The position numbers and the translations under genes were made by a program. Positions 1,946 through 6,661 of a stretch of 64,000 nucleotides of DNA are shown piece by piece. Position 1 is the stretch's first letter; each line of letters opens with the position of its first letter. The stretch lies in the NCBI GenBank assembly GCA_963977015.1, contig CAXBMO010000005.1:64001-128000 (forward strand), read 5' to 3'. Under the pieces are notes generated by a model that did no database searches, was not told where the DNA came from, and worked only from the letters and a program-made list of their open reading frames with translations. Origin of the DNA: an uncultured bacterium (lineage in GTDB: Bacteria; Verrucomicrobiota; Verrucomicrobiia; Verrucomicrobiales; DEV007).

Positions 1946-2171
1946 GAGGGCGGATTGCCCCCCCCGACGGGACACACGATTCGCTCGAAGATTGTGCCGT
2001 TTTACGCGTTCAACACTGCTCCGTTCCTTTCACGAACCGTTTCCACCATCTCCAGCCAACCGGGTTTGCTTCGTCAAGCAACGTGGTCGTTGCGATCCGG
2101 CAAGCTGCCGGCTTCCCATTCCCGCATCATCCCACCCGAGTCTTGGGTTGGCGCATTCGACTGGTTTTCAA

Positions 2172-2188
2172 GACTGCGGACCGCAGCC
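2172..2188 (-). promoter_or_regulatory. Candidate bacterial SECIS hairpin
   Basis: GGCUGCG-GUC-CGCAGUC begins 12 nt after the in-frame UGA (2203-2201); resembles the E. coli fdhF SECIS upper stem-loop. Confidence 0.5.
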
Positions 2189-2200
2189 ACCAAAGGGATT

Positions 2201-2401
2201 TCAGCCTCCGCCCGGCGGCGGGCTGGGTGCGGCCCCGGAAGGAGAGATGAAGCCGTAGCCGCCGGAGATGACCCGGCGCACCGGGACACCGGTGTCGGGA
2301 TGCCGTTTGAGCGGTGGATCGGTCATGCTCTGACGAACTTCGAACTGAATCGGAGCCTCGTTGCAGCAGTCCGGAATGGTCTCGTAAACGTAGGTCGGCA
2401 T
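2201..2401 (-). CDS. FmdB-family zinc-ribbon-like small protein; may extend to 2168 by UGA recoding
   Basis: MPTYVYE...FEVRQSMTDPPLKRHPDTGVPVRRVISGG pattern; 12 nt downstream of the CxxCH gene, same strand. Confidence 0.85.
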   Translation of the reverse strand: MPTYVYETIPDCCNEAPIQFEVRQSMTDPPLKRHPDTGVPVRRVISGGYGFISPSGAAPSPPPGGG

Positions 2402-2413
2402 GACTCAAACACC

Positions 2414-5400
2414 TTACTTCATGGGATGCTCCTTGAGCAAGTCCGCCGGTTTGTAGAATTGGCCGGGCTGCCGGTCGGAAGTGGCTTTGCGGACTTTTTT
2501 GACCGTTTCCGGCTTCACCACCGAAGCGTTGTTACCAAAGGCGTTGCGAACGTAGGTCAACACACCCGCAATTTCCTCGTCATTGAGAAAGCCTGCAAAT
2601 GGTGTCATGGGAGGCACTCCCTGGCTTGGGTCATACGTTTTGCCGTTAACCTCAATGGGGCCCCATAATCCATGGAGCACGAGTTTGATGAGACGCTCTT
2701 CGCTTCCACTCACCCACGGACTCTTCGTCAGTGGTGGATAAATATTCGGAACCGCCCCTACCCCATCGGCGCCATGGCAAGTCTCGCAGTGTGCATCGCG
2801 GCCATAGACTTCCTCGCCGATCTTCCAAAGCTTTTTCTCAGCATTGGTGAGATGGGAGGGAGCTTTGGGTTTGGGAGCTTCCTTCGTTTTCAGCTCAAGC
2901 TTTCCCTGGGTGAGAAGCTCGGCGTTCTTGTTGTCACCAATATCGAGTCCTTCAGCATCATCTTTCAGGGTCCAGTAGGCAGCCTCGATCGATGGCCCCA
3001 TCCATTTGTCGAACGGTAGGCGAACCGCCTCCATGAGAATCTTGGCCCCGTCCTGATTATCGAGCCAGCTGGCGGCAACGATCGCTTCGAGTCGAACGCG
3101 AGGATGTTCGTCGGTCGCTGCATCAAGGAAGAGTTCGGTGCTGTTGGGCACCTGCCCGTGGGTGAAGCGGAGTACATCGACGGCGGCTGCGCGGACTTGG
3201 TGGCGACTGTCATTGAGCGCCTGTCTGAGAATGTGGTGATCGACTTTGCCTTGCGCCCAAGTCGCCCACAAACCTTCGAGGAGGTGACGCCCGTAATCCG
3301 GATCACTCGGGCTGAGACCGGCTACCCATTTGCGAACTGCCGGAAGCACTTCCGCAGGGGCGTGTTCGCGAAGCTCGCGACGGGTGCGATATCGGGTCCG
3401 GTATTCGTGAGCTTTGAGGTTCTCCAACAGATTGGCGACCGGCTCACCATCGATTTTGGCCGGCTCGACCAAGGGACGGGATGGATAGGTGAGTCGGTAG
3501 ATACGGCCATACTGCGAATTGCGATTGGGGTCGCGCGCGGAATGCTGCATGTGCCCGATGAGGGCGTTGTGCCAATCGACGATGTAGAGAGAGCCATCGG
3601 GCGCGAATTCAAGGTCGGCAGGGCGATAGTTTCCGTCATCGCTGCGCACGAGATCCTGCCGGTGGCGTCCCTGAAAGCCGGATCCATCTTCCAACACCGT
3701 GTGTTGCTTGGTGCCGAGAAAGCCAATCGTGTTGTTGAGCAGGTAGTCGCCCTGAACAGCGTCAGGGAAATGGCGACTGGAAACAAATTCGCCGCCGGAG
3801 GTGGGCCGCACCTTGTGAGTTGTGAATTGCTCGGTCTTTCCAATTTCCATCCCATGCGGAGTCTTGGCGCTTAGGGCTGTCATCCACCAATTCGCTCCTC
3901 CGGAAGCATCGCCAAGGAAGTCCTGGCCAAATTCATCGAAGGAAACGGCCCAGGGATTGGAGTAGTCGGACTGGGAATGGCGGATCAACTTCCACGAACG
4001 CGGATCAAAGCGCCAAACGCCGCCATCAGTCATGCGCTGAGGGCCATACGGAGTCTCAACCTGACTGTGGAGAAATCGCCCTTCGCAAAGATAAAAGGCG
4101 CCGGAAGCGTCCGCGCAGTAGGCTGAAATGGCGTGGTGAGTATCGTGAGAATCGAATCCGTCCACGATACGGGTGCGCTTGTCGGCCACGTCGTCGCCGT
4201 CGGTGTCTTCGAGCAACATCAGGTAAGGTTCCTCGCTAACGTAAACGCCTTCGGGCGCAAGTTCGAAGCCGATGGGAACGTGAAGACCTTCTGCGAAAAT
4301 CGTCCGTTTATCCGCACGGTTGTCGCCGTCGGTATCTTCAAAAATCAGGATCTTGTCATTGGGTCGCTCACCTCCGGGGAGATAATGCGGATAGCTCGGA
4401 ACGGTGGAAACCCAGAGGCGGCCTTTCGCATCGAACGACATTTGGACCGGATTCTGCAGGAGCGGAAACTCTTTCTCGGAAGCAAACAGCTCCAATTTGT
4501 AGCCTTCCGGGAGCTGGAAGCGCGACATGGCGGCGGGAGGATCGAGATATTCGATCTTCCGCGTGTAGTTCGTGATGACCTTGCTCAGCTTACGTGTTTT
4601 AGAGTCATCCACGGCCTTGTCCTTGCCTTGGGCGATGGCCCAGATTTTCTCATCACGGAGGAACCCCATCTGGCGGATTTTCTCGATCTCTTCCGGATAG
4701 TTCACGTTGCCGTATGGCGCCCAGCGACGTCCCCAAACGTGAACACCGTTCAGCATCCGGTAATCATTGTGCCAGAGCCAATTCCGATCAAGAATCGCCT
4801 CGCGAAGCTTGGCCAATTGCTCGGGTTTCGTCTTCAGTCGAATGGGGCCAAAGAGCTTTTCCATCAGCACCGGAGCAAGCAATTCGTAACCGTCGGAGTT
4901 GAGATGACAGCCGTTGAGTGTGAGTTGGGAACCATCGACGGAGAACCAGTCTTTCGTCACCGAAAAGAGATCGATTCCGCCCACGTTCCTGGCTTTGGCA
5001 ACTTCGAGAACCGCTTGGGAATAGGCTTCCAAGCGCTTGTTCTCCGCTTGGCCAGAAGGCAAATCATAGGCATCGCGCCGGTCTTCAAAGGCAATCGGCG
5101 TTACCAAAACCAGCTTTGGCGCAGACTTGCCACCGTTGTAGCTGAGGCTCAGCGTGTGATCGACGAAGGCGCTCAATTCCGCTTTGAAATTGGCCAGCCC
5201 ATCCATCCCATCGAATGACTCATTGTAGCCGAAGAATGCGACAATCGTGTCCGCCTTCAGATCCGCCAGCCACTCATCGGGATAGGGGTAGTGACCATTC
5301 CCGGGTTTCAATCCGGGAATGTGCGTTTGCTTGTCGGGGTGAAACTTCTCGGCACCGGGAAACGCCCAGGGAGTATCGCGTGCCGGATGAGCGCGAAATC

Positions 5401-6661
5401 CCGGTGTGTCGGCCGGGTGACACATGTTCCGGAAAAACAGATTCTTGTCGGCAAAATGCGCAAAGAGCCGGGTTTCAAAGTGCCCCTCATGAAGCATGCG
5501 CTCGCCCAGGCTGTTTCCAATGAAGACAATTCGTTCACCCTGTTGGGGCTTGAGGGGCAGGTTCACCGGCCCCACGGATTTCGGCGCCTTCTTTGGCTGT
5601 TCGTACTTGGGCCGTTCGGCCATTCCCTCTTGAATCGGCTTCTTCGTTCCCTTCGGCTCCTTCATGGTCGTTGCGAGACCGGTTGCGGTGCTCTTGCCCA
5701 ACGCGAAGCTTTGCGCGGTAAGCTTGAGCCCGTCGTAATACTCCTTGGGGTTGCGGGAATAGAACGTCGGTTGATAACGATCGACGGGCTTAACATTGGC
5801 TGCGGGCGGGACCTCCAGCCCCGTCAGATGGAAGACGCCATTTACGACGATTCGACGAAGGCTTTTCGCTTTGAAGTCGACCGATGACCCAATCGTGCTC
5901 ATGAGGGCCATACCCGTCTTGCCGCTTGGCGCGGTGTATTCCTTCAACCAAACAGCCGCCTGGAGAGGATCGTTCTTTGCCTGAACGTAATTGGAATTGG
6001 GGTCGAGCGACTCGATCACCGCACCTCGCACCAAAATCGTGGCATTCGCCTCATCCAGATTTCCCGTTCCATAAACATCACTCGGCGCAAAGAACATATC
6101 ATCGACTCCGCGCAAAACGGGATGCCGCGAATGCTTCTGAACAATGATACCGCGGGTTCCCTCCACCTTGTGTTTTCCGTGATGGCCCGCCCACTTCTCC
6201 CCGAGGAACGTCAGCCCAAAATTGTTCCAATCGATCCCGCCCAGATCGGACTTGGTCTTGAACGCATGCGTTGCGGTTCGCAGTCCGATCACGGGTTTCC
6301 CAGCATTGATGAAATCCAGAATATGTTGCAACTGCGGTTCGGGCAGATCGCGAAACCGGGTCGCCAGAATCATCACATCGGCGGTTTTGAGAGCCGCCAA
6401 GCCAGGAATGTTGGTGTTGAGCTCCGGATTGATGTATCCGGTCTTCGGGTCGATGGCAAAACAGACCGTTGCCTTGAATCCATGATACTGGGAAAGAATC
6501 TTGGCCAACATCGGTCCCGTTTCCTCTGACCGGTATTCCTCATCGCCGGTGACGATGACAACGTGTTTGCCCTTGCCGGGCCCTTCTTCGCCCTCGAGGA
6601 CGAGCGTTTGAGCCGAAGCCAGAAACGGCAAGGCGAGAATCGAAAGAAGCAGTTGACGCAT
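2414..6661 (-). CDS. Secreted PVC-type heme-binding CxxCH protein (ThuA-like + SGNH-like + beta-propeller dehydrogenase + HEAT-like + cytochrome c)
   Basis: Signal peptide; GDEEYRSEE...GLRTATHAF (ThuA-like); IVFIGNSL...FFGYNES (SGNH); LFASEKEFP..NPVQMSFDAKGRLWV, FAPDGSLYIVDW (propeller); CETCH and GVPPMTPF (cyt c). Confidence 0.9.
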   Translation of the reverse strand: MRQLLLSILALPFLASAQTLVLEGEEGPGKGKHVVIVTGDEEYRSEETGPMLAKILSQYHGFKATVCFAIDPKTGYINPELNTNIPGLAALKTADVMILATRFRDLPEPQLQHILDFINAGKPVIGLRTATHAFKTKSDLGGIDWNNFGLTFLGEKWAGHHGKHKVEGTRGIIVQKHSRHPVLRGVDDMFFAPSDVYGTGNLDEANATILVRGAVIESLDPNSNYVQAKNDPLQAAVWLKEYTAPSGKTGMALMSTIGSSVDFKAKSLRRIVVNGVFHLTGLEVPPAANVKPVDRYQPTFYSRNPKEYYDGLKLTAQSFALGKSTATGLATTMKEPKGTKKPIQEGMAERPKYEQPKKAPKSVGPVNLPLKPQQGERIVFIGNSLGERMLHEGHFETRLFAHFADKNLFFRNMCHPADTPGFRAHPARDTPWAFPGAEKFHPDKQTHIPGLKPGNGHYPYPDEWLADLKADTIVAFFGYNESFDGMDGLANFKAELSAFVDHTLSLSYNGGKSAPKLVLVTPIAFEDRRDAYDLPSGQAENKRLEAYSQAVLEVAKARNVGGIDLFSVTKDWFSVDGSQLTLNGCHLNSDGYELLAPVLMEKLFGPIRLKTKPEQLAKLREAILDRNWLWHNDYRMLNGVHVWGRRWAPYGNVNYPEEIEKIRQMGFLRDEKIWAIAQGKDKAVDDSKTRKLSKVITNYTRKIEYLDPPAAMSRFQLPEGYKLELFASEKEFPLLQNPVQMSFDAKGRLWVSTVPSYPHYLPGGERPNDKILIFEDTDGDNRADKRTIFAEGLHVPIGFELAPEGVYVSEEPYLMLLEDTDGDDVADKRTRIVDGFDSHDTHHAISAYCADASGAFYLCEGRFLHSQVETPYGPQRMTDGGVWRFDPRSWKLIRHSQSDYSNPWAVSFDEFGQDFLGDASGGANWWMTALSAKTPHGMEIGKTEQFTTHKVRPTSGGEFVSSRHFPDAVQGDYLLNNTIGFLGTKQHTVLEDGSGFQGRHRQDLVRSDDGNYRPADLEFAPDGSLYIVDWHNALIGHMQHSARDPNRNSQYGRIYRLTYPSRPLVEPAKIDGEPVANLLENLKAHEYRTRYRTRRELREHAPAEVLPAVRKWVAGLSPSDPDYGRHLLEGLWATWAQGKVDHHILRQALNDSRHQVRAAAVDVLRFTHGQVPNSTELFLDAATDEHPRVRLEAIVAASWLDNQDGAKILMEAVRLPFDKWMGPSIEAAYWTLKDDAEGLDIGDNKNAELLTQGKLELKTKEAPKPKAPSHLTNAEKKLWKIGEEVYGRDAHCETCHGADGVGAVPNIYPPLTKSPWVSGSEERLIKLVLHGLWGPIEVNGKTYDPSQGVPPMTPFAGFLNDEEIAGVLTYVRNAFGNNASVVKPETVKKVRKATSDRQPGQFYKPADLLKEHPMK

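Follow-up and report, generated by a model that had tools for sequence, protein, structure and literature searches.

The FmdB family has already been listed as a predicted selenoprotein family, represented by two reads of the Global Ocean Sampling (GOS) (Zhang & Gladyshev 2008, PMC2398784). As given in the supplement of that paper, the two sequences begin with MPIYEYSUQEUG... and MPIYDYKCSNUG..., i.e. with the motifs UxxU and CxxU, and in the accessible parts of two reviews (PMC9312934, 2022; PMC13188914, 2026) the family appears with that motif but no accession. The words 'zinc ribbon' are absent from the accessible text of the more recent review, which also describes families with a selenocysteine (Sec) near the C-terminus, among them UXX-star, KCU-star and SaoC, with a role as metal or metalloid ligand proposed for several of them (PMC13188914). 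Here, a stretch of 64,000 nucleotides (nt; hereafter the window) from an uncultured bacterium of the verrucomicrobial lineage DEV007 was analyzed (assembly GCA_963977015.1, contig CAXBMO010000005.1, positions 64,001 to 128,000), which harbors a small FmdB-like gene with an in-frame UGA codon close to its 3′-end. This gene very probably encodes a selenoprotein of 77 residues. For the whole statement, including Sec insertion by the standard SelB mechanism, we estimate a probability of roughly 0.85, while the claim that the gene encodes a true selenoprotein is slightly more secure.

The conventional open reading frame (ORF) extends from position 2401 to 2201 on the minus strand of the window. Its product of 66 residues (MPTYVYETIPDCCNEAPIQFEVRQSMTDPPLKRHPDTGVPVRRVISGGYGFISPSGAAPSPPPGGG) terminates with PPPGGG, followed by a TGA at 2203-2201. 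Beyond this codon, the same frame continues with N-P-F-G-G-C-G-P-Q-S up to a second TGA at 2170-2168. An earlier inspection of the letters alone (the sequence-only reading) had pointed out this ORF end and its continuation, a hairpin 12 nt past the first UGA with a possible lower pairing UGGU/ACCA, and a large CxxCH gene adjoining on the same strand; all of them were found in the sequence. The elements of the gene are the following:

2168..2401, minus strand: full gene read with Sec, 77 codons, from ATG at 2401-2399 to the true stop TGA at 2170-2168, MPTYVYETIP...PPPGGG-U-NPFGGCGPQS
2264..2401, minus strand: N-terminal domain (residues 1-46), a predicted beta ribbon of three strands that descends from the FmdB zinc ribbon but has none of its four zinc-ligand cysteines
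2201..2203, minus strand: in-frame UGA read as Sec, residue 67, aligned with the invariant Cys column of alignments A1 and A3
2171..2200, minus strand: ten post-UGA codons NPFGGCGPQS including Cys73, frame and Cys codons kept among close UGA forms
2172..2188, minus strand: upper hairpin of the candidate selenocysteine insertion sequence (SECIS), GGCUGCG-GUC-CGCAGUC, starting 12 nt after the UGA, loop G 20 nt after the UGA
2162..2192, minus strand: possible lower pairing of UGGU (2192-2189) with ACCA (2165-2162), around the upper hairpin and the true stop

To find homologues, 60 relatives were searched with the extended peptide, and 134 genomes of the same family were then searched with a profile from alignment A1 (16 sequences); a larger alignment, A3, comprises 52 sequences (both MAFFT). 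An in-frame TGA was detected in 15 matches of the family search, 14 of which share the Sec-type architecture and belong to seven genera. In these UGA forms, whose sequences are 50-84% identical, the UGA is followed by seven to 12 codons with CxC, CC or C and then by a TAG, TAA or TGA stop. They stem from the window's genome (G000) and from G003, G008, G016, G018, G024, G026, G080, G122, G135-138 and G153, with the following tails:

G000: ...GGG-U-NPFGG-C-GPQS
G003 (same genus): U-NPFGG-C-SS
G008, G026: U-MP[ST]G-CGC-SS
G135, G136, G138: C-U-NPGG-CGC-S
G137: C-U-QSGG-CGC
G016, G153: U-[AT]RPGG-CGC-[TA]
G024, G122: U-[AS]P[GA]GG-CC
G080: U-APGP-CC-S
G018: U-GPASGRS-CAC-AE

The remaining TGA match (G070) reads ...CCPTCH-TGA and was treated as a Cys form with an ordinary stop. 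A second group of paralogues ending with ...GSRGR-TGA (including L033, L034, L035 and L039) was likewise rejected, since nothing is conserved behind their TGA. The second UGA of the window's gene was also considered as a further Sec codon and dismissed: in G003 the frame stops sooner with TAG, and there is no conservation downstream.

Sec67 falls into the invariant Cys column of both alignments, where Cys forms read, for instance, ...GGS-C-GTG-C-G-C-H or ...S-CC-SGGS-CC-S. Among the 133 homologues without UGA (53 genome and 80 metagenome loci), 126 possess at least three cysteines within their last 22 residues and 123 fit the pattern C-x(2-5)-C-x(0-1)-C, usually as C-x3-C-x-C. The rest comprises one sequence with two cysteines, four with fewer than two (one being a paralogue with a His-rich tail) and two running off their contigs. 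The codons behind the UGA evolve like coding sequence. In seven comparisons of close UGA forms, covering 56 codons, 15 synonymous and nine non-synonymous differences were counted, no frameshift occurred and the Cys codons were always retained, with switches between TGT and TGC. Hence, the post-UGA frame is under selection, and the gene family shows the pattern that is classic for a Sec/Cys pair whose downstream segment is translated. A tree of 40 sequences, from which G126 was left out owing to ambiguous residues, grouped the UGA forms with a minimum of two label changes, a value reached by none of 500 shuffles.

Bacterial SECIS elements usually carry their loop at a distance of roughly 16-37 nt from the UGA. 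The minimum free energy (MFE) fold of the window's stretch, calculated for this one sequence, includes both the upper and the lower stem. All 14 UGA forms possess a stem of at least 6 bp starting 10-15 nt after the UGA and a loop of 3-5 nt starting 19-24 nt after it. The loops are GUC, AGUUC, AGUUA, AGUU, GGUU or CGUGA, in which GU is invariant. A single definition, chosen after inspection of these 14 sequences, was then applied to all sets: a stem of at least 6 bp and a loop of 3-5 nt that contains GU and begins 17-26 nt after the codon. By this definition, the hairpin was present in 14 of 14 UGA forms and in none of 27 Cys forms, in each of which three tail Cys codons were tested. As a background, it was detected after 97 of 7036 (1.4%) TGA codons ending frames of at least 150 codons in G000 and after 70 of 4635 other sampled TGA codons. 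Some of the 97 codons may mark further truncated selenoprotein genes.

The position of the hairpin relative to the true stop is informative as well. In G024, G080, G122 and G137 the 3′ arm lies entirely past the true stop, and in G008, G026, G135, G136 and G138 it does so save for its first one or two bases. Its pairing with the Cys-coding 5′ arm is therefore no by-product of coding. RNAalifold predicted no pairs when the 14 post-UGA stretches had been aligned by MAFFT, since three rows were out of register, and the sequences were hence re-anchored on hand-picked hairpins (alignment A4, 17 nt). In A4, both-side changes occur at five of six pairs, and the loop positions G8 and T9 are invariant. 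These compensatory changes and the invariant GU support the assignment as a SECIS, which the sequence-only reading had made by likeness to the fdhF element of E. coli. The hairpin does not look like a terminator: there is no T-run behind it, and the minus strand showed no terminator-like site. The sole terminator-like site, at 1909-1940 on the plus strand of the window, is a 14-bp GC-rich hairpin with a T-run. It separates the small gene from a convergent dikinase gene and is likely a terminator, perhaps for both.

The genome from which the window originates (6.9 Mb, 95% complete) contains the genes for Sec synthesis and insertion, all of them exceeding the curated cut-offs:

selA: 403 bits
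tRNA-Sec (selC): 61.8 bits, gathering score 47
selB: 293 bits
selD: G000:C5:255715-256644, minus strand, locus L010, outside the window, 376 bits, with one in-frame TGA

Read as Sec, the in-frame TGA of selD yields the motif SSCAGU, and a hairpin with a GU loop lies approximately 33 nt after this UGA. Judging by these genes, the window's organism uses selenocysteine. selA was detected in all 14 genomes with a UGA form, compared to 84 of the 134 family genomes overall. Nine genomes (G019, G020, G021, G023, G061, G073, G146, G149, G154; G061 is just 53% complete) possess the small gene without a selA match, in every case as a Cys form. Moreover, all full-length matches outside the window's family in an even, phylum-wide sample of 401 genomes were Cys forms, and the best 80 metagenome loci contained no UGA form (79 Cys tails or cut ends, one His tail).

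The TGA is not an assembly error. Contigs of the runs X3 and X4, which originate from a different study than run X1, span 2168-2203 with the TGA and the tail without a single difference. The X1 contig deviates at 2315, 2330 and 2363, all of them third positions with synonymous changes (Pro29, Gln24, Cys13), and at 2407 in the intergenic region. As the differences within the gene are synonymous, a close strain variant exists. In the public database the gene product (P0002) has 66 residues and ends at the UGA, in line with the expectation that gene callers would truncate it. Four more entries (64-68 residues) among the 120 best database matches end exactly at the Sec position and lack the tail cysteines. 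The homologues come from Verrucomicrobia-type organisms and are entered as proteins of the FmdB family, as zinc ribbon domain proteins or as predicted nucleic-acid-binding Zn ribbon proteins; none of the homologue names listed bears a selenoprotein label. Altogether, the protein search yielded 869 proteins at E ≤ 1e-5, and at least 482 stretches were confirmed in metagenomes.

The protein itself resembles FmdB in layout. Its domain starts at the initiator Met (MPTYVYE...), and behind it come a Gly/Pro/Ser linker and the Cys/Sec tail. PF09723 (Zn_ribbon_8) matches residues 1-45 with 29.6 bits (curated cut-off 34.4) and TIGR02605 residues 1-52 with 24.3-24.9 bits (curated cut-off 31.3), so that both scores stay under the cut-offs for membership. 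TIGR02605 was found at E ≤ 1 in 15 of 16 members scanned (best E 1.2e-6), of which the window's member was the one compared with the cut-off. All other models of NCBIfam release-20 matched at most one of the 16 members (weak single matches to two unrelated models, E 0.058 and 0.25), and the selenoprotein models of this collection gave no match among them. FmdB proteins typically possess two CxxC pairs approximately 17 residues apart. The window's protein contains no CxxC at all and, as already noticed in the sequence-only reading, carries DCC and HPDT instead; within the family, I-P-x6 and H-P-[DE]-T-G occupy the aligned positions of the pairs. AlphaFold2, run with 52 sequences, predicted strands at residues 3-8, 19-23 and 40-44 of the N-terminal 46 residues, with a predicted local distance difference test (pLDDT) score of 81-88, and modelled the tail as disordered (pLDDT < 50). 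The first 46 residues contain 16 invariant columns in A1 and 14 in A3. Throughout the clade, Cys and Sec are confined to the tail, except for the window's genus, in which one tail Cys was lost and Cys12-Cys13 was gained in the first loop. Foldseek against the PDB gave nothing at E ≤ 0.001; its weak, non-significant top rows included domains bearing zinc ribbons (aRF1 C-domain, MCM N-domain, Sir2). A profile search of PDB sequences returned two de novo designs only (E 0.16 and 0.87).

The window's genome encodes further proteins of this kind. There are two canonical FmdB genes with CxxC pairs. One CxxC-bearing FmdB-type gene, G000:C10:127267-127407 on the plus strand (L112; CRVC...CPLC), ends with ...VYEKL-TGA, behind which the frame goes on with P-G-C. 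A second Cys-less FmdB-like paralogue is located at G000:C1:561772-561936 on the plus strand (locus L114, ~4273-4500) and has the tail ...DDYSHGHGHDHEH-stop, with the His-rich sequence HGHGHDHEH. Similar tails were seen in G002 (L043) and in the metagenome locus L161. In G000, the neighbours of the His-tail paralogue are genes of fatty-acid and amino-acid metabolism, and there is no metal-related gene.

We infer from sequence comparison that Sec is inserted at the UGA. When the ribosome reaches the UGA at 2203-2201, the hairpin 12 nt downstream would act as a bacterial SECIS. SelB carrying Sec-tRNA(Sec) would bind it via the apical GU, 20 nt after the UGA, and insert Sec, whereupon ten further codons would be translated through the hairpin until termination at the UGA at 2170-2168. 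The product would consist of an N-terminal beta ribbon, i.e. an FmdB-type zinc ribbon deprived of its four zinc ligands, followed by the Gly/Pro/Ser linker and a flexible tail that places Sec67 and Cys73 at the C-x3-C-x-C cluster of the relatives, with Cys12 and Cys13 as extra residues in this genus. The tail GGG-U-NPFGG-C-GPQS postulated by the sequence-only reading is supported by the alignment of UGA with Cys, by the conservation of both the downstream frame and the hairpin, and by the Sec machinery. As findings that would speak against it, that reading had named a genome without selABCD, or homologues ending here with TAA or TAG; what was found are selA, selB, selD and tRNA-Sec, as well as homologues with Cys or UGA at this position and a conserved frame downstream.

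Several observations weigh against this interpretation. The tail encoded in the window's genome is the most degenerate of all 14, since a single Cys instead of CxC or CC follows the Sec. The 14 UGA forms are related and the tree requires only two label changes, so they represent one or few events and not 14 independent ones. Concerning the RNA structure, the hairpin definition was made after the sequences had been inspected, and what makes it informative is the comparison with Cys forms and genome background. The 97.2% of cells paired in A4 (74.1% in shuffles, 21-60% in slid controls) is partly a matter of construction because the hairpins were selected by hand, and G137, displaced by one column in the MAFFT alignment, accounts for the sole two unpaired cells. 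The variety of pair types at homologous A4 positions is not an artefact of the hairpin choice. A search of 2050-2450 with Rfam at E ≤ 10 did not return a bacterial SECIS family but only chance-level matches to dauA and ST7-OT3_2. Finally, the family matches the FmdB models only below their cut-offs.

To gain insight into a possible function, 125 flanking ORFs from 67 loci were examined (flanks of 1.5 kb). In the window, the gene is preceded on the minus strand by the gene of a 1415-residue protein (2414-6661) with ThuA-like, GDSL-like, DUF7133/PVC-type CxxCH, HEAT and cytochrome c parts. The start codon of the small gene lies 12 nt past the stop of this gene, and a putative ribosome-binding site reaches into it:

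2410..2415, minus strand: possible ribosome-binding site AAGGTG, located 8 nt ahead of the ATG and sharing bases with the stop TAA of the upstream gene (2416-2414)

On the other side, a pyruvate phosphate dikinase-type gene is convergent. A tblastn search with the C-terminal 450 residues of the CxxCH protein against 41 oriented loci revealed that the CxxCH neighbour is shared by G000 and G003 of the same genus only. For this reason, a functional link between the two genes was rejected.

At six loci from three families (G020, G061, G073, G372, G438, G381), arsA is located immediately upstream on the same strand, and downstream of the small gene follows an acr3-type SBF gene (two loci) or a gene of the low-molecular-weight phosphatase/ArsC type (one locus). 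The proteins of this subclade (L037, L058, L067, L095, L107, L108) share TYLYETIP...RYEI.QSIHD...GGWGL and have tails such as GCGCGPAGCC; its gene context suggests a small, hitherto undescribed constituent of ars operons. A COG0523 (CobW/HypB/UreG-type) GTPase gene adjoins the small gene in nine loci (L059, L060, L061, L066, L069, L070, L074, L075, L078), eight times on the same strand and convergently in the UGA form G080; a further case is the metagenome locus L146 (P-loop in the read-through). merC is divergent in four loci, three of them also adjacent to COG0523 (L074, L075, L078) and the fourth being L080.

With moderate confidence, which is lower than that for Sec insertion, the composition of the tail and the gene context of the Cys-form relatives suggest that the flexible tail may bind soft metals or metalloids of the As(III), Zn or Hg type, Sec taking the place of one thiolate. 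A wider proposal is more doubtful. According to this, the Cys-less FmdB-like proteins of the phylum would be small carriers of soft metals or metalloids, whose zinc-free ribbon docks on ArsA, COG0523 GTPases or MerC-type transporters and whose C-x3-C-x-C tail, or His-rich tail in the sister paralogue, holds the ion, the thiolate having been replaced by a selenolate in one marine lineage. Two points speak against a role in metal binding. None of the 14 UGA forms has an ars or mer context and only G080 has a COG0523 gene, in convergent orientation; and the genes around the window's gene are unrelated, those around the other UGA forms showing no relation to each other. The sequence-only reading had left it at a redox or metal site. 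The neighbourhoods of the relatives lean towards a metal or metalloid, and a redox arm is the main rival.

As such a redox centre, the tail would form a selenenylsulfide between Sec67 and the tail Cys on a flexible arm passing electrons to a partner. Mammalian thioredoxin reductase with its C-terminal Gly-Cys-Sec-Gly arm may serve as a model. A vicinal Cys-Sec pair is indeed present in four UGA forms (G135-138; GGCU-NPGG-CGC), the tail is predicted to be flexible and OsmC-family genes adjoin the gene in five loci. In addition, as far as the accessible text of one review goes, most catalogued bacterial selenoproteins are thought to be redox-active (PMC9312934, 2022). However, the gene has no conserved thioredoxin, reductase or peroxidase neighbour; the recurrent ones are arsA, acr3, COG0523 and merC. 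Moreover, the paralogue with a His-rich tail and the frequent occurrence of His at the tip of Cys tails (29 of 131 complete forms) fit metal binding better. We regard a redox function of the selenoprotein as possible, though rather unlikely.

Very improbable is the view that the UGA is an ordinary stop. In that case the protein would have 66 residues, the hairpin would belong to an unrelated RNA element, for instance a terminator or stabiliser, and the later Cys codons would be the decaying remnant of a lost tail. The public gene call ends in this way, TGA is the commonest stop of the family (80 of 131 complete non-UGA forms), the ...GSRGR-TGA paralogues end with it as well, and given a single origin of the UGA forms, their shared features could be partly inherited. 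A remnant, however, would accumulate frameshifts and non-synonymous changes, whereas seven genera have retained the frame and the Cys codons as well as a stop close by, with an excess of synonymous changes. An unrelated structure is also difficult to reconcile with a hairpin whose pairing survives changes on both sides, whose loop GU never varies and which lacks a T-run, nor does it fit with the absence of this hairpin from 27 of 27 Cys forms and the restriction of UGA forms to selA-positive genomes (14 of 14).

The description of TIGR02605 reportedly likens FmdB tails to precursors of heterocycle-containing bacteriocins, which would make the protein a precursor of a ribosomally synthesised and post-translationally modified peptide (RiPP), the N-terminal domain being the leader and the Gly/Cys/Sec tail the core peptide. 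In spite of a weak match of one of 16 members to a patellamide-type RiPP model (E 0.058) and of a 'selenobacteriocin' class in the table of the 2026 review as far as accessible (PMC13188914), this is the least probable explanation, because no YcaO, radical SAM, lanthipeptide or other maturation family was detected at E ≤ 1e-6 among the 125 flanking ORFs, and because the first 46 residues are far better conserved than usual leaders and are predicted to fold as a domain.

Thus, a selenoprotein with Sec in its tail is the preferred reading, and it can be compared to several known systems. Like the FmdB zinc ribbons (TIGR02605 CxxC_CxxC_SSSS; PF09723), the protein has N-terminal 45-52 residues that span the full model and a low-complexity tail, but its first CxxC is replaced by a longer loop and the second by H-P-[DE]-T, and the scores fall short of both cut-offs. 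ArsD, the arsenic metallochaperone of ArsA, is small and soluble, has about three Cys thiolates and is encoded beside arsA. Similarly, one subclade of the Cys-less family lies between arsA and acr3 or arsC; on the other hand, fold and sequence are unrelated to those of ArsD, the gene follows arsA instead of preceding it, and the UGA forms occur outside ars operons. Zinc-independent 'C-minus' paralogues of zinc-ribbon proteins are said to accompany COG0523 GTPases. They resemble the Cys-less family in having a zinc-ribbon fold minus the Cys ligands and a place next to COG0523 genes (here nine of 67 loci and the metagenome contig L146), the likeness resting on fold and adjacency; in contrast to the known C-minus proteins, the Cys-less family has a Cys/Sec cluster in its tail. 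What our protein has in common with UXX-star, KCU-star and SaoC (Cys-Cys-COOH), as described in the accessible text, is a Sec few residues from the end, so that the SECIS overlaps or follows the true stop (PMC13188914), while the sequences are unrelated.

The accessible literature on FmdB, selenoproteins, arsenic and COG0523 did not describe FmdB-like proteins with Sec in the tail, nor did that on FmdB, arsenic, COG0523 and metallochaperones link such proteins to ars or COG0523 genes. The recoding mechanism is textbook knowledge; the Sec site, the Cys-less subfamily and the possible metal role are absent from the published catalogues as far as accessible. Taken together, the Sec/Cys pair, the paralogue with its His tail and the neighbouring arsA, acr3, COG0523 and merC genes suggest metal or metalloid handling for a family known by name only. 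Were the carrier proposal correct, the protein would be a genetically encoded selenium-containing metallochaperone, and there would be a selenium-dependent switch between a tail-less product of 66 residues and a tail-bearing one of 77 residues. Even without this, the gene is very probably an example of a selenoprotein gene cut short by automated annotation.

The closest relatives among described selenoproteins are the FmdB proteins of the GOS reads. According to the accessible sources, both kinds are small members of the same superfamily, of the TIGR02605/COG2331 type, with an MP.Y.Y start, a Sec/Cys pair and the standard bacterial SECIS mechanism. What separates them is the site of Sec, which in the GOS proteins is part of the first zinc knuckle, whereas here the knuckle cysteines are gone and Sec is residue 67 of 77, ten residues from the end. 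The gene would thus provide a second Sec site within the FmdB superfamily, in a lineage without the classic zinc ligands. With these ligands lost, it seems to be the tail that carries the function of these common, unstudied small proteins.

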